Assembly (NCBI GenBank): GCA_003558085.1
Contig: PWMT01000091.1
Span: forward strand, 1 to 20,945
DNA: 20,945 nucleotides
Source: Methanobacteriaceae archaeon
Lineage (GTDB): Archaea > Methanobacteriota > Methanobacteria > Methanobacteriales > Methanobacteriaceae
Direction: 5' to 3'
The position numbers and the translations under genes are program-made. Shown in pieces: positions 511 through 18,242 of the stretch (positions within the stretch are counted from its first letter, which is position 1; each line of letters begins with the position of its first letter). The notes under the pieces were generated by a model. The model was given only the letters and a program-made list of their open reading frames with translations, was not told the DNA's origin and searched no databases.

Positions 511-692
511 AAAAAAAGTCGTTTTATTTTAGTAAATAAAAGTAGGCTTCCAGAGAAAATTTAGGGGTTGTTAGGAGTGAAAAAGGGAGGTGTTATCTCT
601 GGAAGCCTAAATTTTTTTCAGCTTTCAACAAAATAAATAGATAATACGTTGAAAACTGCAAATTGGGGGTGATGTGTGCATACCACACACAT
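511..692 (-). ncRNA. Putative structured small RNA with anti-SD motifs
   Basis: Hairpins at 672-678/686-692 (7 bp), 619-629/648-658 (11 bp, whose single mismatch is G-U only on the minus strand), 543-556/596-609 (perfect 14 bp, 39-nt C-rich loop) and 522-529/534-541 (8 bp AU). Upstream BRE-TATA at 729-714 and a U7 tract at 517-511. Confidence 0.6.
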
Positions 693-713
693 AATTATAT
701 TCCCATGTTTTCC

Positions 714-729
714 TATATAAATTTATCGG
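714..729 (-). promoter_or_regulatory. Archaeal BRE + TATA box, predicted TSS ~692-690
   Basis: Minus strand reads CCGATAAA-TTTATATA, a near-consensus BRE/TATA. No long ORF follows it, only the hairpin cluster. Confidence 0.65.
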
Positions 730-870: not shown

Positions 871-1563
871 ATGAAAACCACACTTAAAGGACCTATATTT
901 ATCGGTCGCAGTTGGTTAGAATATTTAAAAATGTTTAATCTGGATCTTAAAGAATTAAATAACTGGAATATTCTTGACTGTGCTGCAGGTGCCAGTTCAT
1001 TCACGGCTTACATGTTTAAAAATCATCTTAAGAGTATCGCCGTAGATTTAAAGTACGATAAGACTCCAGAATTTTTAGAGAAAATGTGTAAGCAACACCT
1101 CCAAGTCTTGGTGGATTCCCTACAGCCCTTGCAGAATCATTTTGAGTGGTACTTTTTTAAAGATCTGGAAGAACTTAAAAAACATCGCATGCAATCCTGT
1201 CAAGAATTTGCTAGAGACTACCAAAAGGGATGGGGAAAAAGATACCTAAAAGCAGATTTAATTGACTTACCCTTTGCAGATAATAGTTTTGATCTAGTGC
1301 TCTGTGCCCACTTACTATTTATTTATGATCATCGACTTAGCGCTGATTTTCATTTAAAAGCAGTGCAGGAGATGATAAGGGTTACTAAAAACCAACTAAG
1401 ATTGTATCCCCTGGTAAAACATAAAGGAGAAAAATCAGTAATGGTGGATAAAGTAATCCAGAATTTACCCTTAAATTATCAGGCCCAGCTTGTTCCTGTG
1501 GATTATCAGTTTCGTCGAGGAGGAAATGAAATGCTGGTTATATCCAAGAAAACCAGCAAATAA
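871..1563 (+). CDS. Class I SAM-dependent methyltransferase, substrate unknown
   Basis: Motif I ILDCAAGASSF, AVD, and the post-II motif ADLIDLPFADNSFDLVLC; AGGGATG SD upstream. Confidence 0.85.
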   Translation: MKTTLKGPIFIGRSWLEYLKMFNLDLKELNNWNILDCAAGASSFTAYMFKNHLKSIAVDLKYDKTPEFLEKMCKQHLQVLVDSLQPLQNHFEWYFFKDLEELKKHRMQSCQEFARDYQKGWGKRYLKADLIDLPFADNSFDLVLCAHLLFIYDHRLSADFHLKAVQEMIRVTKNQLRLYPLVKHKGEKSVMVDKVIQNLPLNYQAQLVPVDYQFRRGGNEMLVISKKTSK

Positions 1564-1565
1564 AA

Positions 1566-4145
1566 TTATTCACTGATTTCTTTTACAATAGCTTGGTGCA
1601 TTCTTTTAATAAATTCTATTCTTTCCTCGTATTTTAAAACATCCAAGTAACCTTGTGCTACCAGATTAAAAGCAAAGGGTGAGGGAATTTTGGTGTTGAA
1701 CTGTTTAATTTCCATCTGCTTACTTTCTATCCAACCTAAAACTCTTTGAGCATTCTTAACATCCATATAATCTTCAATTACTTCTCTACGTGCTTCTTGC
1801 AGTATGGAGAAATTATCATCCAAATCCTTAACAAATTTTAACAATATTTTCCCTTTAACTTGCTGACGACCCACAGACTTTTCCTGACCTTTATAACGTC
1901 GAAGTATCATTAAAGATCTACCAGCGCAATGGCGAAACCTACTGGCCAAGGTCTCGGTTTTATCTATAGCCTTAATCAAAATATCCTCCAGATTTTCCGA
2001 ATTCAATTTTTTAAAGGCCTCCAACCCACCAATTTTCCCTTCAGAACTTAAATAGAATCCATTATCGGATACTGATATCATCACATCTCTTTTATATTTT
2101 TTAGCGATTATATAGGCTAAAGCCCGGGACAGGGCATCGTTTACTCTTCGGCCAAACAAACTATGGAAAACCACGAATTTTCTACCACCAAAACCAGTAT
2201 AATATTCTACTAGCAAACGGCGATTGCTGGGTATATGTGCATAGAGGTACTGTTCTTTAAAATATTGATAAATAGAGTGGGCTGCATTGTAATCCACGTA
2301 TAAATAGTCGTGAATGAATTTTAGGATTTCTTTTTTACTCCTACCATAGTCAAACTTACCATCCATTATATCCCTAAATCGTTGAATATCCACTGCCAAA
2401 TCAAAAGAAAGTGGTAATTGTTCGGAAAACCAAGAAGGAATTGTTGGAGGTCCTGAAGATGGACTGACGTTAACGCTCATTCCTCTTGCATAATTAAAAC
2501 GATAAATATTACCGCCCAAAACAAAGGTGTCTCCTTTGCGTAGTTTTTCCATAAATTCTTCCTCGATACGACCCACCACTTTTCCAGCACACTTAACCAC
2601 TGCTGCAGTACGGTCAGGTATAGTTCCAATATTGGTGGAGTAAAGCATGCGTGCAAGTTTTCCTCGTTTACCAAATAAGTTCTCCTCATAATCCACCCAA
2701 ATCTTAGCATATACATATCTATCTTCCAGGCTGGTATATTCACCAGCCATATAACTTAAAACACTCCTGAAATCTTTTTTAGATAATTGCTGATAACAAT
2801 AACTCTTTTGAATTACATCCAAAGCATAATCTATGTCCCATTTATTTTCAATAGCCATTCCATAGATATGTTGGGATAAAACATCTAAGCAGTTAGTGGG
2901 AATATTTATAGAATCAATGTTTCCTTCTAAAGCATTTTTTAAGATTAAAGAACATTCTAATAAATCATCACGATCCACTACCAACATCCGACCCTTGGAT
3001 TTCTCATGTAAGCGATGACCACTACGACCAATTCGTTGTAAAGCTCTGGAAACAGATTTAGGTGAACTGACCAGTATAACCAAGTCGATATATCCAATAT
3101 CAATACCCAACTCTAAAGAGGTGGAAGAGACCACAGCCTTCAATTTCCCTTCTTTTAATTTATTTTCAGCTTCTAAGCGCATTTCCTTAGAAAGAGAGGA
3201 GTGATGGGCCATTATATTTTCTTGATGGTAATTATCTTTAAAACGTTTTTTAAGATTATATACAATGCTTTCAGTACCACTCCTGGTATTGGTGAAAATT
3301 AAGGTAGTTTTATGGTCCTGTATAAGATGATCCAGCAGATCATACATGGCGGTATTGGTTTCTTCTGGATCAGCAGCAATGATATCATCCACCGGGCAGA
3401 TAACTTCCATATCCAATTTTTTCAAGTAATTAATATCCACGATAAGACAATCCCTGACCTGGCCATATTCATATCCCACCAAAAATTTAGCTACTTTTTC
3501 CAGGGGCGATACAGTAGCCGATAAACCTATACGGGTAAAAGTGCCAATATGATGTTGTAGTCTTTCTAGACTCAAAGAAAGATGCACTCCTCTTTTATTT
3601 TCAGCCAGGGAGTGAATTTCATCTACTATAACATATTTTACCATAGAAAGCTTTTCCCGAAATTTAGGGGCTACTAGTAATATGGATAAAGTTTCGGGAG
3701 TGGTAATCAGGATATGTGGTGGTTTTTTTAACATAGCCGCCCTTCTAGAGGGAGGTGTATCACCGGTACGCACTGCTTTTCTTATACCTAATTCCTTACC
3801 AGCTATTTTCTCTATTTCTCTTAAAGGTTCCTCTAAATTTTTTTCTATATCATTATCCAGAGCTTTAAGTGGAGAAATATAAATACAGTACACTTTATCC
3901 TCTAATTCTCTCTTACTAGAAAGATCGGTTAGTTGACTGAGTATGGATAAGAAGGCAGTTAAGGTTTTACCTGAACCTGTAGGAGAGGAAACCAGCACAT
4001 TTTTTTTAAGATTAATATCCATTATAGCATATTTTTGAGCTGGAGTGAAGCTTTCAAAGTTTTTCTTAAACCATTTACTTACCCAGGGATTTAGATTAGC
4101 GTGAATTTCTTTATCAGAATATACTTTACTCTGTTTAGTTATCAT
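1566..4145 (-). CDS. lhr: Lhr-family SF2 ATP-dependent DNA helicase (archaeal Lhr-core)
   Basis: Q-motif FTPAQ, Walker [40 protein letters not shown]; 859 aa with Lhr-type C-terminal domains (SPFAFNL). Confidence 0.93.
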
Positions 4146-8804: not shown

Positions 8805-9695
8805 ATGATTGATCAGACTATTCACTCCATATTTAAGAAAGGGAGTAATACTTACTATTATAGTACAATTTTTTTTCCCAAAGAAATAAAAAAAGATGTT
8901 TTCATTTTATATAGTTTTTTAAGAAAAGCAGATGATTATGTAGATGATATACCCCAGGATGTAGAAGGATTCTATGCTTTTAAAGAAAGATACAAAACTG
9001 CGCTGGAAGGAGAAAAGACTAATGATGTAGTGGCTGATTCATTCGCAGATTTAATTCATAGAAAACAAATTGATCAAGCCTGGGTTGATGCATTTTTAAG
9101 ATCTATGGAGATGGATCTTTCCATATCCAATTATGCAACATTTAAAGATCTTAAAACTTATCTCCATGGTTCAGCTGAAGTGGTAGGCTTGTTCATGGCT
9201 AAAATAATGGGTCTTTCTAAGGAATCATATAAAAGTGCACGTTATTTGGGTCGAGCCATGCAGTATATGAATTTCATCCGGGATATTGCTGAAGACTTAG
9301 AGCTGGGGAGAGCATACTTTCCCCAAAAGGAGCTGCGCAAATTTGATTTAGAGGACTTAACTTTAAGAGAAGTAAAAACGAAACCTGATAATTTTAAATC
9401 CTTTATAAGAGATCAGATAGATATCTACCATTCCTGGCAGGCTAAGGCCGAGGAAGGATATTCTTATATTCCTTATCGTTACCTAATACCGATTAAATCT
9501 GCTGCTGATATGTATACTTGGACCGGATCCCAAATATATCAGGATCCCTTCCTAGTTTATAAACGTAAAGTCAAACCTAGAGTATTACGCATCGTTGGTA
9601 CAGTAATATCCAATTCTCTTAAAAGTTATCTAATCGTTAAAAAACTATCCTGTCCCTTCCATGATAGTTCTGATAGAGAAAATTATTCTAGATAA
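8805..9695 (+). CDS. crtB: Phytoene/squalene synthase family protein
   Basis: KGSNTYY, RKADDYVDD, SMEMD, AEVVG and LGRAMQYMNFIRDIAEDLELGRAYFP motifs; GAGGGTGA SD. Confidence 0.9.
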   Translation: MIDQTIHSIFKKGSNTYYYSTIFFPKEIKKDVFILYSFLRKADDYVDDIPQDVEGFYAFKERYKTALEGEKTNDVVADSFADLIHRKQIDQAWVDAFLRSMEMDLSISNYATFKDLKTYLHGSAEVVGLFMAKIMGLSKESYKSARYLGRAMQYMNFIRDIAEDLELGRAYFPQKELRKFDLEDLTLREVKTKPDNFKSFIRDQIDIYHSWQAKAEEGYSYIPYRYLIPIKSAADMYTWTGSQIYQDPFLVYKRKVKPRVLRIVGTVISNSLKSYLIVKKLSCPFHDSSDRENYSR

Positions 9696-9742
9696 TTTTA
9701 TACTATCTCACATACTTAACCATCCATTATGCAAGGAGTTTT

Positions 9743-10591
9743 ATGCTATCCTTTTTATTTAAAATTTCCCGTTTCCGATTTTGGATATATACCGGGGGAA
9801 CCTATGTAGTGGGCTATGCACTGGGAGCAACTCTTTTTTCTGATTTCCTACGCCCGGAATATTATATATATTTAATATACTTCTTTCTACCAGCCAATAT
9901 ATTTATTTACGGTGTTAATGATTACTGGGATCAGGATACCGATGAATTAAACCCTAAAAAAGATGAAAAAGAGCACCGACTAAAAATTAGAGAGAAATCT
10001 AAATTGCTTTACACCATCTATCTTCTAACTGGACTGAGCCTAATATTGATGTTTTTTCAAAATTGGGGTGAGCGTTTAATATTTGCTGGATTTCTATTCC
10101 TATCCTACTTTTACAGTGCACCACCCTTACGTTTTAAAGAAAAACCATTTTTAGATTTCTCTTCTAATCTATTATACATTATGCCAGGATTATTTGCCTA
10201 TTATTTAGTGGCAGGAGTTTTACCTTCAGGGCTAATATTGCTAGGGGCTTATTTTCATATTTCCGCCATGCATATTTTCTCAGCCATACCAGATATAGAA
10301 TATGATAGTAAAAGTGGAATTAGGACCACTCCAGTAGCTATTGGCCAAAAACCAGCTTTAATTTTAACCTTATTTTTCTGGATACTATTATCAGCCATAG
10401 TTATTTATTTGGCCCAGTTCCATATTCTAAGCTTTCTAGTTATTCTTTACCCTCTATTCCCTTTAAGTTTACTTTTATTCCCGAAATTAAATATTGATAA
10501 ACTTTACTGGTATTTACCCTACCTGAACACTGCCTTGGGCGGTCTTCTATTTCTATTTTTAATCAATTATCAAATCTTTAACTGGTTTTAG
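9743..10591 (+). CDS. lyeJ: UbiA-family prenyltransferase, lycopene elongase (LyeJ/CrtEb type)
   Basis: SRFRFWIY, YGVNDYWD..TDELNPKK, YSAPPLRFKEKPFLD..SN and AMHIFSAIPDI..D...GIRT match the lycopene-elongase signature; follows crtB; AGGAG SD. Confidence 0.8.
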   Translation: MLSFLFKISRFRFWIYTGGTYVVGYALGATLFSDFLRPEYYIYLIYFFLPANIFIYGVNDYWDQDTDELNPKKDEKEHRLKIREKSKLLYTIYLLTGLSLILMFFQNWGERLIFAGFLFLSYFYSAPPLRFKEKPFLDFSSNLLYIMPGLFAYYLVAGVLPSGLILLGAYFHISAMHIFSAIPDIEYDSKSGIRTTPVAIGQKPALILTLFFWILLSAIVIYLAQFHILSFLVILYPLFPLSLLLFPKLNIDKLYWYLPYLNTALGGLLFLFLINYQIFNWF

Positions 10592-10600
10592 TTTAGGTTG

Positions 10601-10700
10601 AATAGAATATTTTCTTAGGGTTTGGAGAGAAATAGATTTTATTTTTTTGGTTTATTAAAATAGATGTTTTCTTTTCATGGTTAATAATAGATTTTAATTT
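10601..10700 (+). repeat. Four degenerate ~27-30-nt tandem units (AATAGA-T-tract-GGTT) between convergent genes
   Basis: AATAGA at 10601, 10631, 10659 and 10686, each followed by a T-rich run and preceded by GGTT. Confidence 0.55.
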
Positions 10701-11454
10701 AAACCTCAAAATTACCGACCCTACCTCGGGTAGACCATATAATAAAAATTATCAGGCTCACTCCTATTAAGCAGGGTATATATAACTGCAGATAAAAGTT
10801 CACCGCACTCCAAAAAACCATAATCAATAATAAACTAGAAGATAAAGCTTCTGGTTTCACCTCTCTTATTTTTGAAGTAGTAATACTCACCCCCAGGAGT
10901 GAGGCTATAAATCCAGAGACCACCCATCCTAGAAAATTCATTAAAGGTACTCCATAAAAAATTCCTGGTTCTTTCCACACCCAAAGCTGGAGAGCTACAG
11001 CTGCAGGATCTAAAACCAAGTCACTTATCACCAGTAAAAAAGTGGATAATATTATAATTGACCATAAGCCAGCTTTATTAATTTTAATTTCACTGGCCAA
11101 ATATAGACAACCAATAAAAATAGGAATCCAAGCAAAGGGAAGCATAATCGGAGTTGTTCCCCATAATTTAGGACCAATCAAACCAGTATAATAAAATTCT
11201 GAATAAGGAATCCCAGTATAAATAGCCAGTGTTTCTATAATCAAAGCATAAATACTCAAGCTAATAAGCAGAACTAAACCTTTCCTCCAACCTAACCATA
11301 ATAGCACTGCTATAAAGGAAGGCAGAGCTAAAAATAGAATAAAAAATAGGGATATGATAGCATTTTCTGGACCTATCTCCACATTAGTAACAAAAAAAGC
11401 TGCAATCAAAAGAGAAAAACTGATAATATAAATAAATTTAGAATAATCCTTCAA
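10699..11454 (-). CDS. cruF: Carotenoid 1,2-hydratase (CruF / bisanhydrobacterioruberin hydratase family)
   Basis: Membrane protein with IE.LAI.TGIPY..F.Y...GPKL, LPFAW, DLVLDPAAV and W.W...G.FYGVPL.NFLGW. TTG start with an AGGAG SD inside the end of the upstream gene. Confidence 0.82.
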   Translation of the reverse strand: MKDYSKFIYIISFSLLIAAFFVTNVEIGPENAIISLFFILFLALPSFIAVLLWLGWRKGLVLLISLSIYALIIETLAIYTGIPYSEFYYTGLIGPKLWGTTPIMLPFAWIPIFIGCLYLASEIKINKAGLWSIIILSTFLLVISDLVLDPAAVALQLWVWKEPGIFYGVPLMNFLGWVVSGFIASLLGVSITTSKIREVKPEALSSSLLLIMVFWSAVNFYLQLYIPCLIGVSLIIFIIWSTRGRVGNFEV

Positions 11455-11459
11455 AATAA

Positions 11460-12302
11460 CTACTCCTTTTGAGGTTTATCTATTAAACAGTATATATCAT
11501 TTCTTCTATTTTTAAGAAGAGGTAATTCAGTTCGAATTTTCTCTTCATCTTCCAAATTCAAGTCAACATATAATATTTCTTCTTTAACTCCTGCTTCTAC
11601 TATAACATCCCCCCAGGGATTAGATACTAGAGAATGCCCATAAGCCACATAAGAAGCTTCATGATCACGGGCAGGTGATGCAGCAGCTACGAAAACCTGG
11701 TTATCTATGGCTCTAGTTCTAAGCAGGGTTTTCCAGTGGACTGGGCCGGTAGTCAAATTAAAGGCACCAGGATAAACCAATAAGCAGGCGCCTTTTAGGG
11801 TCATTAGGCGGGCTAACTCAGGAAAACGAAGATCATAACAAATAGCAATACCTATTTTTCCTAAATCAGTGTCAATGACAGTTACTTTATTACCAGCACT
11901 GAGAACATCAGATTCTTTAAAATAAATTTCACCAGGCACATCTATGTCAAATAGATGCATTTTTCGATGGAAACCTAATATTTTACCTTTATCATCGAAA
12001 AAAAAGCTAGTATTATATATTTTCCCCTTACTAATTTCAGGAATAGATCCAGCCACACAGTGCACTTTATTATTCCGGCAAATAGAGGCCAAGGATTTTA
12101 AGGTAAGACTGTCATCTTTTAGCTCAGCATACTGGGAAAATTTAGCAGTCTCATAGGGACAGTTGAACATTTCTGGTAAGATAACTAGATCAGCACCTTT
12201 TCTACTAGCAGCAGATATCATTCTTTTTGCTTGCTCAATATTAGCTGATTTATCATCCACCACTTTCATTTGTAATAGTGCTAATTTGATTTCTAAAACC
12301 AT
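11460..12302 (-). CDS. Carbon-nitrogen hydrolase (nitrilase superfamily, Nit1/Nit2 omega-amidase-like)
   Basis: Catalytic triad E (LPEMF), K (HRKMHLFD), C (ICYDLRFPE); PGAFN.TTGP.HW, RAIDNQ and GHS....PWG. Confidence 0.9.
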   Translation of the reverse strand: MVLEIKLALLQMKVVDDKSANIEQAKRMISAASRKGADLVILPEMFNCPYETAKFSQYAELKDDSLTLKSLASICRNNKVHCVAGSIPEISKGKIYNTSFFFDDKGKILGFHRKMHLFDIDVPGEIYFKESDVLSAGNKVTVIDTDLGKIGIAICYDLRFPELARLMTLKGACLLVYPGAFNLTTGPVHWKTLLRTRAIDNQVFVAAASPARDHEASYVAYGHSLVSNPWGDVIVEAGVKEEILYVDLNLEDEEKIRTELPLLKNRRNDIYCLIDKPQKE

Positions 12303-12398
12303 AATCTGACCTCTAGAATATTTATATTATTTATTGGTTGAGATAATTCTAGATTATTATATTTGGAGCTTTAGTTAGTAATAAAGATTTAAATCAAA

Positions 12399-13529
12399 TT
12401 AGGGACCAAAATGTCCTCTCTCAGTTTGAACGATCACTGTTTTCAGGCCTAATTCATTGAACATATTTTTAATTTCAACCATTTCCTGCCAATTCGGCTT
12501 TATAAGTTCATTTCTTCTAAATTCAGGCCTGTAATCTAGAATACAAACCTGAATTTTAGGATCCCAGGCTTTAATCTTTTCTCCCATTTTCATTAATTCT
12601 GATTTGGAGATTAATTGCTTATTATAGGGTATTCCAATTCCAAGAAATATAGATGGTTTTTCAGGATACCTGTTAGTAGATTTTAGTTGGAAATCATTTA
12701 ATTCATTATCTGATTCAGTTTTAATCACGTGATCCATATTATAATGTTCAATCAGATATTTTACCGAATTCCAGGAATTTTTAAGGTATTGGTTTGCTAA
12801 ATCGTAATCTTCCATTCCAGTGATTAATTGAAATGTGGAAACTTCCCAGCCCTTTAAATCTATACCTATATAATTCATACCTGCTTTTACTAGCTGATCT
12901 AAGTAGTGGGGGGTTAAAATGGTTCCATTAGTATCCACATGAATGTTAAGATTATTTTTATTTTTTTTAATAGACTCTATGGTTTTCAGTAGCCAGGGCC
13001 TATTTAAAGTGCTTTCTCCTCCCGAGAAAGTTATGGTATCAACTTCATGTACTTCTTTTAGACCCCATAGAATCTGAGCTGTTTCTTGCGGATCTAATAA
13101 ACTTCCTAAATCTGTAAAAGCGATCTTATAATTCTGGCACTGGGGACAGCGAAGATTACATCCATGTGTGAAGACTACCACTTCTATTGGTTTCGTTTGT
13201 ATCTTTAAAAAATAAGGAGTTCCTACCCCACCCACATAATGTGCTCCGAAGCCACTTACTACTCTTAAAACCTGCTTAGAACTATATTTAAGAGTTTCAA
13301 TATACATATCTTTTTTTAAAGGCGTAATGCAAGCTAAAGATGTTTTTCCATTTATTTTAACTGTACAGGCCCAACATCCTCCACAATTACAGGGCATGAA
13401 AATAGAGTCTCTTTTATCAACATCGCCATCAGTTAATAATTTATTGATCTTAATTCCTGCAGATATAAGGGCATCCTTAACCATACCTTTGGATTCTATT
13501 TCACGGCCGTTGACCTTTACTTTGAACAA
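12399..13529 (-). CDS. Radical SAM protein (PFL-activase-like) with N-terminal [2Fe-2S] ferredoxin-like domain
   Basis: CNLRCPQC, FSGGE, DTNG and IDLKG motifs; N-terminal PCNCGGCWACTV..NG....ACITP; TTG start behind an AGGTGA SD. Confidence 0.85.
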   Translation of the reverse strand: MFKVKVNGREIESKGMVKDALISAGIKINKLLTDGDVDKRDSIFMPCNCGGCWACTVKINGKTSLACITPLKKDMYIETLKYSSKQVLRVVSGFGAHYVGGVGTPYFLKIQTKPIEVVVFTHGCNLRCPQCQNYKIAFTDLGSLLDPQETAQILWGLKEVHEVDTITFSGGESTLNRPWLLKTIESIKKNKNNLNIHVDTNGTILTPHYLDQLVKAGMNYIGIDLKGWEVSTFQLITGMEDYDLANQYLKNSWNSVKYLIEHYNMDHVIKTESDNELNDFQLKSTNRYPEKPSIFLGIGIPYNKQLISKSELMKMGEKIKAWDPKIQVCILDYRPEFRRNELIKPNWQEMVEIKNMFNELGLKTVIVQTERGHFGP

Positions 13530-13751
13530 TTCATTTCACCTAATTTAATATTATATATTTTTTAATATAAAATATCTATTTATTATAAAAATTAGCTTTT
13601 AGGAAAGAGTTAGGGTAATTTATCCATTTATTAGCCTATAATCATAGTCCACCATAGATAGTTCTATAAACTTAAAACTATATAGTATGTTAAATAAAAT
13701 TTCGATTCAGTTGATACTTAAAAATAAGATAATTCTTATAAGGAAGATTAT

Positions 13752-14606
13752 ATGCCTACGCCAGAACATGAAATAAACTCCATAGAAAAATTATTATCCT
13801 CGAATCAGTACTTACCAGACCATAATATTTCCCTAACAGTCTTTTTAGCTTTAAAACTCCAAAAACCAATATTGGTTGAAGGCCCTCCTGGAACTGGAAA
13901 AACGGAATTATCTAAAGCGGTTTCCCGGGCGTTGGATAGGGATTTTTTCCGCATTCAATGTTATGAGGGTATAACCTTTGAACAGATCGTAGGGGAATGG
14001 AATTATCAAAAACAGTTACTTTATCTAGAGATGTCTCGATTGCAGGAATTGGATGAAGATGTATTCCAGAACCAATTCTTTATAAAAAGACCTCTGCTTT
14101 CTGCTTTTATCAATAAGAAGCCTTCAGTATTACTTATTGATGAGATAGATAAAGCTGATGAAGAAGTTGAAAGTTTTCTATTACAAGCTCTAGGCGAAAA
14201 ACAGATTACAGTAAATGACTTGGGAACTTTTGAGTTAGAGAATGATTTGATAGTATTTTTAACTTCTAATTCTCAAAGAAACTTGTTGGAAGAAACCAAG
14301 GATCGTTGCTTATATTTGTATATTGACTACCCTTCCCTGGAAAGGGAAATTGAAATTGTCACTGCTTTATTACCAGAGGCACCTTCAAATCTGGTGGAGG
14401 GTGTGGTGCAGATGATTCAAAAAATAAGAAATTTGACCTTGATCAAAAAACCCTCTATTAGAGCCACGGTGGATTGGGTTAAAACTATACTAGCTTTAGG
14501 TTATAGCCAATTGGATGAGGAAACCTTTCAGGATACAGTAGGGGTAGCACTTAAAAATCAGGACGATAAAGAAAAAGTGAAAAACCAATTTTTTAATAGT
14601 AAATAA
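13752..14606 (+). CDS. MoxR-family AAA+ ATPase (CoxD-like)
   Basis: Walker [24 protein letters not shown], Walker [12 protein letters not shown] and PSIRATVDW. Confidence 0.9.
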
Positions 14607-14627
14607 TTCTTTTATAAGGATGTTAAA

Positions 14628-15812
14628 TTGAAAATGGAAATGAAGGATATGGCTCTTCTTTCAGCTAACCTTCGAGCCAAGGGCATACCTGCCAGTGTTA
14701 GAAGTACAAAAACAGCTTTTTCAGCTGCTAAACTTTTTAATCAAATATCTTCTAAGGATAATTATCCTTACCTAAAAGATGCTCTAGCAGCTATCTATGC
14801 TAAAAATAAAGATCAAAGGGAAGAATTTGAGCAAGTTTTTCAGGAAACTTTCCCTGAGTATCAACCAGCAGCACAAGTTATGGAAAACATCTCCGATACT
14901 CGTAAAGAACATGGAAAGAACCAGGATAAATCCTCTCATCTTAAATTGAAACAGAATTCTTTCACATTTAAAAAGGATTCTAAGGATAAGCAAATAAAAA
15001 TGATTGAAGATGATATTAATTTTAAACCACCTATAGATGATTATCCGGGTCTGGACTTGAGAGAAAATTCTTTAATGGAGCTAGATATAAATCATCTGGA
15101 TTTTTATGAAGTGGAACTATTTGAACTATGCCAAAAATTAGGTCGTAAAATTGCTAACCATAGGGCTCGCAGATATAAACAGGCTAAAATTAATCGAATT
15201 GACATTAGAAAGAGTATTCGTAAAAATCTTAAGTATGGTGGTGCCTTAATTGAACTGGAGAAAAGCAAACCTAATTTAAAAAAAAATAGGCACTTTTTTT
15301 TAAGTGATGTTAGCGGATCCTGTGATTGGGTAAGCAACTGGTTTTTTTGTATATTATTTTCGGCCCAGAAATCATTTAAACAATCACGTTTTTTTGATTT
15401 TGATAATAAAGCGGTAGAAACGACTGTGGCATTATCAGAGAACAATCTTATGGATGCTTTTACCCGGGTTAGAGATATACGCCAAAAAAATATTATGATA
15501 CATGGAACTTCAAACATGTATACTGCCTTTTACAGCTTTATAGAACAGACTCAACTAAATCACAAGTCAGTAGTATTGATATTAAGTGATTGTCGTGATT
15601 GGGCCGGACCTAAAGATAATGGTAGGCCTTCAAGTTCAAAATTAATAGAAGAGATGTGCCAACTTTCTAAAAAAGTGATGATTCTAAATCCCGAGCCAGA
15701 AATTAAATGGAATGTGGTGGATAGTTGTGTGAGTGATTATGAAAATGCAGGGGCTCAAATAAAAGAGGTTAGAAATCTCAAACAACTAGCCCGACTAGTA
15801 GAATACATTTAA
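14628..15812 (+). CDS. VWA-domain protein (CoxE-like partner of MoxR)
   Basis: MIDAS motif DVSGS...GTS...LSD, ID.RKSIR.NL..GG and LNPEP...W...DS; 21 nt downstream of the ATPase. Confidence 0.85.
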   Translation: MKMEMKDMALLSANLRAKGIPASVRSTKTAFSAAKLFNQISSKDNYPYLKDALAAIYAKNKDQREEFEQVFQETFPEYQPAAQVMENISDTRKEHGKNQDKSSHLKLKQNSFTFKKDSKDKQIKMIEDDINFKPPIDDYPGLDLRENSLMELDINHLDFYEVELFELCQKLGRKIANHRARRYKQAKINRIDIRKSIRKNLKYGGALIELEKSKPNLKKNRHFFLSDVSGSCDWVSNWFFCILFSAQKSFKQSRFFDFDNKAVETTVALSENNLMDAFTRVRDIRQKNIMIHGTSNMYTAFYSFIEQTQLNHKSVVLILSDCRDWAGPKDNGRPSSSKLIEEMCQLSKKVMILNPEPEIKWNVVDSCVSDYENAGAQIKEVRNLKQLARLVEYI

Positions 15813-15830
15813 AATCTTTTAATTCATTAA

Positions 15831-16580
15831 TTAAAATAAATCTAGGGTTATCTTTTTTTCATTTTTTAATTCATTAGGCGGTTCCAAGGATTTAAATTCT
15901 AAATTATTTTCTTCTAATAATTCCAATGCATCTTCAGTTATGGATGGAGCCACCAAAATACCTCTTACTTCTTTTTTATCATCTTTAAAATCATTTAAAT
16001 ATCTTTTAAGCTGTTTAACTGCATTAGTCCCTGCTTTTCTACTTTTCAATTCAAGTATCATTAGCTGCCCCTTACTATCCTTTCCCAATATATCAATAAA
16101 ACCCTTTGAAGTGGAATATTCTCGGACGGTGGGTCTAAAACCTTTTTCAATTAATTCAGGATGTTTCCAGATTAGTTCACCCATATCTTTTTCATGTCCG
16201 CATACTTCTAGTTCCTGTGCATCCTGACACTGATAATAGGAGACTAGATGCACTTCTTTTAACTCCACTTTTAAGTGTTCCTGTGGTATTCTACGCACAC
16301 TTTCTAAAAAAACCACACCATTTTTCATGGATACTTTAGAACGTGATTTAGGAGGCTGCCAATTAACCGGATCTAATTTTCTATCCTGGTGTATTAAGAA
16401 GGAACCATCTGGTTTGATCAATATCATTCGCTCCCCAAATCCTAATCTACTGCGAGCTCGGCCTTCATAGGTGGCTTGACAGCAAGCTAACAATATTATT
16501 AGTGCTCTTTTACGAATTCCAGTATCAATAATTTTAAAACAATCTGTTGGAGAAGGAGATTCTAGGGAAATAAATTTCAT
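15831..16580 (-). CDS. nucS: Mismatch-specific endonuclease NucS/EndoMS
   Basis: [24 protein letters not shown], RecB-like IDILG..ELK and [16 protein letters not shown]-box-like C-terminus KITLDLF. Confidence 0.95.
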
Positions 16581-16823
16581 AGAATTAATTAATTATTGGA
16601 TATAGATAACCATTTCGAATAATCTCCAGCTCTAAGTATTAATAATCACATCTTTTATTGATAAGCATTTAGAAAGGCCTGCTCTATTTATGTACTAGAT
16701 AGTCTAATATTATTTTTTAAGCTCTTCTTTAAATAAAAAAATATTAAATAAGAATAGAAAATTTCACTATAAGAATCATTAATAAAGTAGAATATTTAAA
16801 TTTAAGCATGAGTAGTTGATTTA

Positions 16824-18242
16824 ATGTTAGATCCCCAAGATTTCTCCATTAAAACTGAACTGGCCCCTGCCTATTATAACCAAGTTATAGATTTTATTTA
16901 CAAATATTATTTTTATCCCCAACCTGATAAATTCAAGGAAATTGAAAAAACTATTAGGGATGGTAAAACTTATTTAAATTTCATTTATACTGATAATGAT
17001 GGTGAAATTAAAGGAAAAATTAAATCTGGAAAAGAAGTAAAAGTTAAATTAAAAATTATAGGAGAAGTCTCTTCCCGTACTTTGGATAAATTAGCTGAAG
17101 ATATTTTTATTGCGGTTCAAATTTTTGAAGAAAATGTACGTCAACACACCATCTATTTTGCCTGGGTAGAAGGACAAAAGATAATACCAGAAAAACCACC
17201 TAACATTAGAAAGAAAACCTCTAAAAAACTTTTTGGTAGTAATTTAATCGTGCTTTTAGCTCTATTTTTCATAATAAACATATCATTGTTTCTATTATTC
17301 GGTCTATTCATTGCTCTTATTCTGATTATTTTAATACAACTTTTAGTGGTTATATTCGCCTATAAAGTTTTCATGATTACTGCGGATTGGAAGATCACTC
17401 CTGAAAATCCCAATATTCACATCATGCAGTATCAACTTCCTGAGGATGAGTACAAATTCTTTGAAAAACAATTAGGTAAAAATGCGCTTATCGAGATTAA
17501 AAAAGAGATTTATGATTCCACTTTGGCCCAGGGAGTTCCACCTACCTGTGAGATGGGAGAGGAAATATTAAATAAGTATGGTTTTAAGTGCAATCCTCTC
17601 CAATCCACTTATAAGGTTATAAATGTTTATGATATTGTAGAAGAGGCCGCTGAAAAATTTGATTTAGATCTGCCTCAGATTATTATCAATAATAATCTAC
17701 TGCCTAATGCAGCTGCTACCGGGCCCAGCCCCAATCGGGGTCTGGTATTGATCACTACCGGACTTTTAGTTCAACTTAATCAAGAAGAAATATTAGCTGT
17801 AGTAGGACATGAAATGGGTCATCTGGTAGGTAGAGATCCTATCATACTCTTTGCATTAATATCAGGGGAATTTATATTACGCCTGACGGTTCTCTTACCC
17901 ATTGTTATCATAAATCCCATCGTCTACTTAATTGTAGCTATGGGTCTAATATTTTTCGTGGCTAAATTTTTCGAGGCACGTGCAGATCTATTATCCGTAA
18001 TCAAAATTGGAAAACCTGAAATATTAGCCCAATCATTGCGTAAAATCGCTTATCAAAAATTACAAATTGAGAGATTTGCTTCTTACCGTATTTCTAGCTG
18101 GATAGGTTGGGATCCTCACCCCCCTATTTATTTTAGAGTAAAAAGATTAGAGAAAATGAAAAATGTGGAGGAAATAGAAAATCCTTTAATACAATCGGTT
18201 AAGGATGTTTTCAGTGGATTTAAAGCTGCTTTTAAAAAATAA
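16824..18242 (+). CDS. M48 family (HtpX-like) membrane Zn metalloprotease with long N-terminal extension
   Basis: PNAAATG, ITTGLL, HEMGH, EARAD and HP....R motifs; two hydrophobic TM blocks. Confidence 0.88.
   Translation: MLDPQDFSIKTELAPAYYNQVIDFIYKYYFYPQPDKFKEIEKTIRDGKTYLNFIYTDNDGEIKGKIKSGKEVKVKLKIIGEVSSRTLDKLAEDIFIAVQIFEENVRQHTIYFAWVEGQKIIPEKPPNIRKKTSKKLFGSNLIVLLALFFIINISLFLLFGLFIALILIILIQLLVVIFAYKVFMITADWKITPENPNIHIMQYQLPEDEYKFFEKQLGKNALIEIKKEIYDSTLAQGVPPTCEMGEEILNKYGFKCNPLQSTYKVINVYDIVEEAAEKFDLDLPQIIINNNLLPNAAATGPSPNRGLVLITTGLLVQLNQEEILAVVGHEMGHLVGRDPIILFALISGEFILRLTVLLPIVIINPIVYLIVAMGLIFFVAKFFEARADLLSVIKIGKPEILAQSLRKIAYQKLQIERFASYRISSWIGWDPHPPIYFRVKRLEKMKNVEEIENPLIQSVKDVFSGFKAAFKK

Follow-up and report, generated by a model that had tools for sequence, protein, structure and literature searches.

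The window analysed here is an entire contig (C109; 20,945 nt) of a 1.86-Mb metagenome-assembled genome (MAG) of a Methanobacteriaceae archaeon, which comprises 175 contigs and carries the genome label G000. An intergenic stretch at 511-729 contains, on the minus strand, a gene for a small RNA (sRNA). The sRNA gene is divergent from a class-I S-adenosylmethionine (SAM) methyltransferase gene (871-1563, plus strand; Pfam Methyltransf_11, E = 5.8e-10), and the methyltransferase gene is followed by a convergent Lhr-type helicase gene (1566-4145). Downstream of the sRNA lies a convergent DUF2769 gene (57-395). Adjacency of the sRNA and methyltransferase genes recurs in 17 of 31 other genomes, which belong to two families and include all nine Methanothermobacter genomes. 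We propose that the RNA acts in trans and would occlude the Shine-Dalgarno (SD) sequence and the start codon of mcrB, the first cistron of mcrBDCGA, which encodes isoenzyme I of methyl-coenzyme M reductase (MCR).

A sequence-only reading of this stretch had described a minus-strand promoter, four consecutive hairpins ending in U7, a C-rich linker and a C-rich hairpin loop, and all of these are present where it had placed them (Table 1). The promoter claim is borne out by the sequence at 729-714, where CCGATAAA, resembling a B recognition element (BRE), directly precedes the TATA box TTTATATA. The start of transcription is predicted from the usual archaeal spacing between TATA box and start, with which a start at 690-692 would be consistent. 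When the region 505-700 was folded by minimum free energy (MFE) and compared with 200 shuffles for each strand, the minus strand reached -48.5 kcal/mol (z = -7.25, 0/200 shuffles as good), and the plus-strand fold was less exceptional (z = -3.07, 1/200 shuffles as good). The minus-strand fold contains the four expected hairpins.

Table 1 Features of the sRNA locus in the window
Feature	Position	Strand	Basis and remarks
BRE-like element CCGATAAA	729-722	minus	read directly in the sequence
TATA box TTTATATA	721-714	minus	read directly in the sequence
Predicted transcription start	690-692	minus	about 27 nt past the TATA centre, at the foot of hairpin 1
Hairpin 1 (GUGUGUG...CACACAU)	692-672	minus	MFE fold; 3/7 consensus pairs with double-sided changes, 95.5% of cells paired
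Linker AUCACCCCC, single-stranded, C-rich	673-665	minus	sequence and MFE fold
Hairpin 2	658-647 with 630-619	minus	MFE fold; 6/8 pairs with double-sided changes, 98.5% of cells paired
Hairpin 3	609-543 (14-bp stem, 609-596 with 556-543; 39-nt loop, 595-557)	minus	MFE fold
CACCUCC loop motif, canonical anti-SD core	592-586	minus	read in the sequence
Anti-mcrB segment UUUUUCACUCCUAACAA, invariant in the loop	584-568	minus	16/17 complementary to G000:C110:15780-15796 (mcrB -17 to -1)
T-rich tract CUUUUAUUU	542-534	minus	directly after hairpin 3; T-rich runs at this place in most Methanobacteriaceae homologues
Hairpin 4 and U7	541-534 with 529-522; U7, 517-511	minus	MFE fold; window-specific

The conserved RNA is smaller than the four-hairpin structure proposed from the sequence. 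That structure is present in the window, but only hairpins 1-3 are conserved, and hairpin 4 with U7 (511-541) could not be aligned in relatives. Archaeal RNA polymerase terminates at oligo-T, and the tract CUUUUAUUU is likely to be the main termination site, hairpin 4 with U7 being possibly a second terminator. Because a T-rich tract directly trails hairpin 3 in most relatives, we take the conserved RNA to have three hairpins and a length of about 150-160 nt. In this organism it would extend from 690-692 either to the T-tract (about 155 nt) or to U7 (about 180 nt).

The single-stranded parts are conserved to different degrees. The linker is kept as AUCACCCCC in the window's clade and Methanothermobacter and is of the AUCAAACCCC type in genus g13; it appears to resemble the 3′ end of archaeal 16S rRNA, and no 16S gene is present in the MAG. 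The loop of hairpin 3 reads UAACACCUCCCUUUUUCACUCCUAACAACCCCUAAAUUU and carries a conserved run of U5-6. Its stem, CUUCCAGAGA/UCUCUGGAAG, is nearly invariant across the family, with 6 of its 12 pairs unchanged throughout and double changes in 3.

In its own genome the sRNA gene is single-copy; only the self-match was significant, and 29 other short matches had E >= 0.057. This excludes a miniature inverted-repeat transposable element or other repeat, an identity that had been named as fatal to the sRNA, and relatives likewise carry one or two matches per genome. The RNA falls into no Rfam family, since Rfam 15 gave 0 matches at the gathering threshold in the whole window. A permissive search returned four sub-threshold matches, the best of which (538-665; 25.3 bits against a gathering score of 50, E = 0.077 in a 471-nt search) is to RF01065, the 23S-methyl motif. 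That bacterial cis-regulatory motif has two tandem hairpins and a U-run, and the window sRNA is not a member of it.

A DNA search of 61 genomes (the window's own and 60 relatives) found homologues in all three other genomes of the same genus at 84-85% identity, in several further genera of the family, and in 9/9 genomes of a second family, all of genus g28 (Methanothermobacter), at 69-71% identity. In the alignment of homologues, the promoter and hairpins 1-3 are conserved, as are the linker AUCACCCCC after hairpin 1 and the loop of hairpin 3, in line with the expectation that relatives would keep the stems and C-rich loops. A covariance model, R1 (156 positions, 27 pairs), built on the trimmed alignment matched over its full length in 47 of 151 Methanobacteriales genomes, most of which have a single match. 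They were found in g1 (Methanobacterium sp.; 2/2), g13 (17/17), g27 (10/11), g25 (2/2), g24 (2/2), g11, g15 and g16 (1/1 each) and g28 (9/9). With strict filters there was no match in g5 (0/35), g3 (0/13), g26 (0/12), g19 (0/9), g14 (0/9) or g18 (0/4), and a phylum-level search with R1 returned the same genome set as the order-level search, adding nothing.

Covariation of the stems, which had been suggested as a check, was observed. Among 44 distinct sequences, 97.7% of cells were paired, compared with 29-56% when partners were slid, and 12 of the 27 consensus pairs had double-sided, compensatory changes, with 0/500 column shuffles reaching any of the observed measures, on an alignment fitted to the R1 model and hence biased towards the structure. 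The same three helices were obtained when RNAalifold was run on an independent MAFFT alignment, and hairpin 2 is the most strongly covarying one. Methanobacterium-like archaea and Methanothermobacter share this single-copy gene for a structured RNA, and we are highly confident that it is real and conserved.

Some further matches lie at the margins of the family. In genus g27, weak second R1 matches of 29-35 bits are found directly beside the main copy (G029:C12:103209-103321, G125:C5:19753-19897, G143:C11:554568-554669 and G155:C17:45952-46032), which suggests tandem partial duplicates. The sequence at L066:1357-1469 opens with a hairpin-1-like GGGUGUGU...CACACC, which is followed by UCACCCCCCC. 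A more sensitive model search of five genomes without a match gave one weak match, in G028 of genus g26 (L112:1501-1623, plus strand, 30.2 bits). Its parts are a hairpin, a linker of CCCCCC and a stem, UUUCCCAGAC/GUCUGGGAA, with GGAUCACCUCC in the loop; it has no obvious TATA box, is located away from the methyltransferase/Lhr pair and may be related remotely or match by chance. In genus g29, a divergent member of the family in G038 (L265:100-274, plus strand, 30.5 bits) keeps the stem as GGCUUCCAGAGA/CUCUGGAAGCC together with the C-rich motifs.

We considered whether the element might not be an RNA gene of its own but a terminator or leader of a neighbouring gene, a small-protein gene or a repeat. 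A 31-aa open reading frame (ORF; 593-688, minus strand) does overlap it, hairpins with U-runs can terminate transcription, and an analogous element in genus g29, described below, precedes a radical-SAM gene. Against this account, the element has its own conserved promoter, whose TTTATATA stands at a constant distance from hairpin 1 in 17 of 20 aligned homologues, and it is single-copy with covariation of the RNA type. The gene downstream also differs between lineages, being DUF2769 in the window and, at the Methanothermobacter locus L016, a flavodoxin-like gene about 250 nt away, so the element is not the leader of one fixed gene. A coding role of the 31-aa ORF is unlikely because indels between close relatives are not multiples of three and because the frame ends inside the loop in the window and runs on in L016. 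The account as a whole is very improbable. Judged by its sequence, with a conserved BRE/TATA at constant distance and T-rich tracts after hairpin 3, the sRNA gene is an independent intergenic transcription unit.

The far end of the contig region downstream of the sRNA requires some caution of its own. Bases 1-102 form a perfect palindrome, with arms 1-51 and 52-102 that are 100% complementary and have no spacer, and the DUF2769 ORF starts within the palindrome. A fold-back artefact of assembly at the contig end seems to be the cause, and therefore bases 1-51 and the listed ORF start at 57 are untrustworthy.

Expression was assessed at the level of the family, as sequencing runs were searched with the Methanothermobacter homologue (L016:1420-1740). 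The homologue was present in 21 of 22 listed runs; these 21 come from 17 studies, and 17 of them are recorded as RNA. Four runs were mapped, all as contigs, which carry no strand, transcript ends or expression level. In a DNase-treated metatranscriptome (X8), short contigs at L016:1512-1586, covering the 5′ arm and loop of hairpin 3, had depths of 9000-18000 compared with 243-389 in the flanks. In the transcriptome of a defined community (X17), a 158-nt contig at L016:1431-1588 had a depth of 65.8, and its flanks 3-25. In a further transcriptome (X15) and metatranscriptome (X5), the sRNA region was on contigs of flank-like depth. Parts of the locus left uncovered in some runs, and the contig ends at L016:1508 and 1431, were given no weight as signs of transcript ends. 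Because contigs give neither strand nor ends and depth over conserved parts sums across related organisms, these depths support, without proving, that the Methanothermobacter homologue is an abundant RNA.

Targets were sought in two genomes, G000 and the Methanothermobacter genome G049 (1,751,377 bp), with 2894 and 5026 ORFs, respectively, and 1430 reciprocal-best-hit orthologue pairs. When the loop segment UUUUUCACUCCUAACAACCCC was scored for ungapped complementarity against -45 to +25 of every ORF, mcrB ranked first in both genomes with a score of 33. The next-best start regions scored 31 in G000 and 29 in G049, and the 99.9th percentiles were 28 and 27. The target site, UUGUUAGGAGGGAAAAA, is immediately 5′ of the mcrB AUG. 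In a scan of every position on both strands, mcrB was again the best non-self Watson-Crick site, pairing at 16/17 positions in G000 (one site reached 15 and fourteen reached 14) and at 19/21 in G049 (next best, 16). When G·U pairs were allowed, two other sites of G000 reached 16/17, and mcrB of G049 was still unique at 20/21. The MCR II gene mrtB is not complementary in G049, as its score of 16 is close to the median of 14. From these scans we judge that the segment, which is predicted to be unpaired, is complementary beyond chance to the SD and start region of a trans-encoded mRNA.

The comparison was extended to mcrB leaders from 52 genomes (50 fetched, plus G000 and G049), for 33 of which the family sRNA was available. 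Nearly every leader in the order has the mcrB core UAGGAGGGAAAAAAUGGC, whether or not the genome carries the sRNA. Upstream of the core, the sequence depends on the lineage, and the sRNA loops change along with it. In g1, g11, g15, g24 and g28, the leader UUGUUAGG goes with the loop CCUAACAA. In g13 the leader CUGUAGG goes with CCUACA; in three genomes of g27, CGUAGG with CCUAU or CCUAC; and in g16, AGUUAGG with CCUAAC. At the other end of the site, g13, g25 and part of g27 have GCCAUUUUUU in the loop at the position of the window's CACCUCCCUUUUU, and it pairs with AAAAAAUGGC, which includes the start codon.

The duplexes predicted in this way differ in extent. An uninterrupted perfect duplex of 17-18 nt (-14 to +4), covering both SD and AUG, is possible in g25 and three g27 genomes. 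The uninterrupted length is 14 nt in g16 and 8-16 nt in g13, where about 20 nt can pair with the loop GCCAUUUUUCCCCCCUACA if a single mismatch is included. For the window's clade and Methanothermobacter it is 9-10 nt, with a second block beyond one mismatch; taken as a whole, the Methanothermobacter duplex extends from -17 to +4 and contains one A·G mismatch as well as one G·U pair.

For a quantitative comparison, pairing was anchored on CCUA:UAGG over 24 positions, of which 15-21 pair in 27 of the 33 genomes. At -14, the pair is U:A in 14 genomes, G:C in 8 and G:U in 3, with 2 mismatched; at -15, it is G:C in 13 and U:A in 8, with 6 mismatched. Across -17 to -14, sRNA loops paired better with the leader of their own genome than with leaders of other genera (mean 2.93 versus 1.96 of 4), and in a permutation among nine genus representatives, 82 of 5000 trials reached the observed sum. 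In these alignments, compensatory covariation between the sRNA and mcrB is present at -14 and -15.

The leaders themselves have other common features. In almost every genus of the order they keep the sequence UAGGAGGGAAAAAAUGGC(A/G)AAG and, about 25-33 nt upstream of the mcrB AUG, a hexamer similar to GTATAC (GTATAC, GTATAT, GTGTAC or ATGTAC). In genus g14, the mcrB start codon is TTG.

The sequence-only reading had favoured a broader function, in which four generic anti-SD variants matched the SD spellings used in this genome. Under such an account the sRNA would be a regulator or sponge that binds many G-rich ribosome-binding sites (RBSs) through AUCACCCCC, CACCUCC, CACUCCU and CCCC, and mcrB would be one site among many. 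The RNA indeed has three or four C-rich, G-free single-stranded motifs, the start regions of the genome are enriched in AGGTGA, GGTGAT and AGGAGG, and the SDs of mcrG (GGAGGUGC) and mcrA (GGGGAGGU(G)) match; in addition, the g29 member L265 keeps the C-rich motifs without the mcrB extension, and the very high depth in one metatranscriptome suits a titrating RNA. However, CACCUCC is kept only in the window's clade and Methanothermobacter and is replaced in g13, g25, g27 and g16 by GCCA or UCCA, which pairs with the mcrB AUG; with whole clades carrying GCCA instead, the set of four matched variants does not stand. Nor does the generic pairing, because the loop has no better energies with all the start regions than shuffled loops have. 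Generic binding would also leave 20 invariant loop nucleotides, including UAACAA, and the leader covariation at -14/-15 unexplained, and would not make mcrB the unique best Watson-Crick site genome-wide in two genomes. We therefore consider generic anti-SD action unlikely. Exposed C-rich segments able to pair with RBSs are thus retained from that reading, but their conserved part is a specific mcrB antisense. Likewise, of its trans-acting regulator there remains a separate gene for a conserved and structured non-coding RNA, under an archaeal promoter of its own, but not the generic anti-SD breadth. The other C-rich motifs could touch further RBSs, including those of mcrG and mcrA.

A second element with anti-mcrB sequence was found when the antisense 17-mer CCATTTTTTCCCTCCTA was searched in 151 genomes with up to 2 mismatches. 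Besides mcrB leaders, perfect or near-perfect copies occur at a second locus in three genomes of genus g29 (L262, at 235-391 on the minus strand, L263 and L270; family f3). The element at this locus is intergenic and conserved, has a TATA box of its own (TTAAATATAA) and carries CCAUUUUUUCCCUCCUAACA, a perfect complement of the clade's mcrB from -16 to +4; overall, the perfect antisense is 17-20 nt. The antisense is followed by C-rich tracts, and the element also has a hairpin, GUGUGGGG...CCCCACAC. It opens no ORF when read as a start region. The other near-matches to the 17-mer that were checked are ordinary gene start regions. In five complete or near-complete genomes without the sRNA (two of g5 and one each of g14, g26 and g19), all 21 matches are ORF start regions, and non-coding anti-mcrB sequence therefore tracks either the sRNA family or the g29 element.

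The g29 element is like the window sRNA in being conserved and intergenic and in having its own TATA box, anti-mcrB sequence and C-rich tracts. Unlike the window sRNA, it scores only 11-13 bits with R1, lacks the CUUCCAGAGA stem, has the motif and the GUGUG hairpin in reversed order, and immediately precedes a radical-SAM gene. The element could be a leader of that gene or an anti-mcrB sRNA in its own right, and either homology or convergence could relate it to the window sRNA.

Recurrence on a different scaffold bears on yet another possibility, namely that the RNA serves to bind protein or as a structure, for example as a platform for Sm-like or 16S-3′-end-binding proteins, its complementarity to mcrB being incidental. 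Conservation of the hairpin 3 stem in sequence itself, with 6/12 pairs invariant, would suit a protein-binding site, as would the U5-6 run of the loop and the apparent resemblance of AUCACCCCC to the 16S 3′ end. Yet incidental complementarity would not be the genome-wide best in two genomes, would not covary with the target and would not recur in g29, so we regard a protein platform as improbable.

We propose the following mechanism. A trans-acting sRNA of about 155-180 nt would be transcribed from its own BRE/TATA promoter (window 534/511-692, minus strand) and fold into the three conserved hairpins. The near-invariant 12-14-bp stem of hairpin 3 would present a loop antisense to the mcrB start region, and pairing would range from about -17 to -1 in the window; in Methanothermobacter it would reach +4, and in other clades its limits would be -14 and +4. 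The duplex would cover the SD GGAGG and in most clades the AUG too, for which reason occlusion of the 30S binding site is the most likely effect; synthesis of McrB and MCR I would then be reduced. We assign a probability of roughly 60% to this reading, that is, to a trans-acting sRNA occluding the SD and start codon of mcrB. Pairing of the sRNA with mcrB is, in our estimate, probable; that the sRNA represses mcrB translation falls slightly short of an even chance.

Repression rather than stabilisation is the direction that we infer. The opposite direction would have the sRNA pair with the mcrB leader so as to shield the 5′ end of the mcr mRNA from 5′-3′ exonucleases or to remodel the leader, increasing MCR I. 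The complementarity evidence is the same for both directions. The site spans nearly the whole of the short leader, and a duplex there could shield the 5′ end; moreover, in RNA libraries from methanogenic reactors, in which mcr expression is presumably high, the sRNA appears to be abundant. Nevertheless, the SD lies within the duplex, as does the AUG in many clades, and in the cases described in the accessible part of PMC5867862 such pairing blocks initiation. Positive action seems to us quite unlikely.

Several points weigh against occlusion of mcrB by the sRNA. First, transcription of the sRNA in the window's own organism, its pairing with mcrB and the resulting regulation are predictions from sequence, and the presence of mcrB -17 to -1 in the mRNA is deduced from sequences resembling a TATA box some 50 nt ahead of the AUG. 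In two of the four mapped runs (X15 and X5), the sRNA contigs are no deeper than their flanks. Second, the ORF sets used in the scans come from a crude home-made caller, and the RNAduplex rank product places mcrB only 4th of 810 ortholog pairs. When the whole loop was run with RNAduplex against 2873 start regions, shuffled loops gave the same energy distributions, making RNAduplex energy alone uninformative. Third, conservation of UAGGAGGGAAAAAAUGGC is independent of the sRNA, as it extends to genera without the sRNA, and an internal A·G mismatch at -7 occurs throughout the window's clade and Methanothermobacter. Because the lineages are related, the covariation amounts to only one or two evolutionary events. 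Finally, the motif is absent from 6 of the 33 genomes, all of g27, and pairing is therefore not universal; five of the six have an altered mcrB leader, GGGACAAAAUG, so this could be co-loss. The loop of the L265 member (UUUUCACCCCAAAA) also has no mcrB-specific extension.

Targets other than mcrB were also sought. A search of the own genome with a 20-mer gave best matches with 3-5 mismatches, which were not compelling, and in five relatives with up to 3 mismatches it returned only the sRNA genes and one site with 3 mismatches; mcrB was missed because the 5′ GGGG part of the 20-mer is unpaired. Searches for the motifs UAGGRGUGRRRR and GGGGGUGAU near starts gave no coherent gene set.

At G000:C142:22845-22872 (plus strand), the RBS and GTG start of a gene for a 237-aa lipoprotein-like protein pair with 25 of 28 loop positions, compared with a maximum of 22-23 in 20 shuffles. 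As a conserved target this gene was rejected, as the extended pairing is not kept in same-genus orthologues and the gene is present in 0/9 Methanothermobacter genomes; it may still be a second target specific to this lineage. A fwdC-like gene (MSEIIITPK...) has the same start region, GGUGAUGUUAUGAGUGAAA, at G000:C95:1594-1612 and at G049:1424547-1424565 (both plus strand). This region scores 27 against the loop segment in both genomes, which is among the top 7, and has the top RNAduplex rank product, making fwdC a possible second methanogenesis target in clades of the CACUCC type.

Bacterial sRNAs of the RsaE/RoxS type have several C-rich, G-free unpaired loop or linker motifs that pair with the G-rich SDs of metabolic mRNAs. 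They are unrelated in sequence, and Rfam gave no match at gathering to RsaE or any other family; unlike them, the window sRNA has one motif that extends into a gene-specific antisense of 17-21 nt. Closer in kind are the intergenic Methanosarcina mazei sRNA41, sRNA154 and sRNA162, whose exposed anti-RBS sequences repress mRNAs of central metabolism, sRNA154 and sRNA41 being RBS-masking examples (as far as the accessible part of PMC5867862 describes them). The window sRNA resembles these in having its own promoter, a structured RNA of about 100-200 nt and predicted SD occlusion. It belongs to a different order, its target is mcrB rather than the ACDS, glnA2 or MM2441 mRNAs, and its function is predicted whereas theirs is experimental; the comparison of the two covers their descriptions and the Rfam 15 search, in which nothing matched.

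A literature search, whose coverage did not extend to most subscription journals or to supplements, found no description of such a Methanobacteriales sRNA or of a natural sRNA acting on mcrB; one preprint describes engineered silencing of mcrB. The RNA looks like a new sRNA family of the known trans-acting, RBS-masking kind.

In Methanothermobacter, MCR II is made preferentially early in growth and MCR I late, and both respond to H2 supply; the regulation of MCR described for Methanobacteriales is transcriptional, through H2, growth phase and a candidate IMPDH-related regulator (both according to the accessible part of PMC3087415). An sRNA that binds mcrB but not mrtB would fit a switch between MCR I and MCR II, and the sRNA would add a post-transcriptional layer to their H2- and growth-phase-dependent choice. 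In its fullest form, this idea has an abundant, dedicated riboregulator of MCR that would clamp the SD and AUG of mcrB but not of mrtB and set the MCR I/II balance by H2 and growth phase, which we offer tentatively, as a proposal with less than even odds.

The step that releases methane is catalysed by MCR, one of the most abundant proteins in methanogens. If the reading is right, the sRNA would be, as far as the literature search reached, the first natural post-transcriptional regulator proposed for mcr and the first conserved sRNA family described for Methanobacteriales. A further anti-mcrB RNA in another family, built differently, would mean that control of mcr by RNA has more than one origin or was re-invented. 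RNA would then help to set the methane-forming capacity of these archaea and its response to H2 supply or growth phase, and, through control of mcrB by the sRNA, the methane output of digesters, biomethanation reactors and guts could become open to manipulation.

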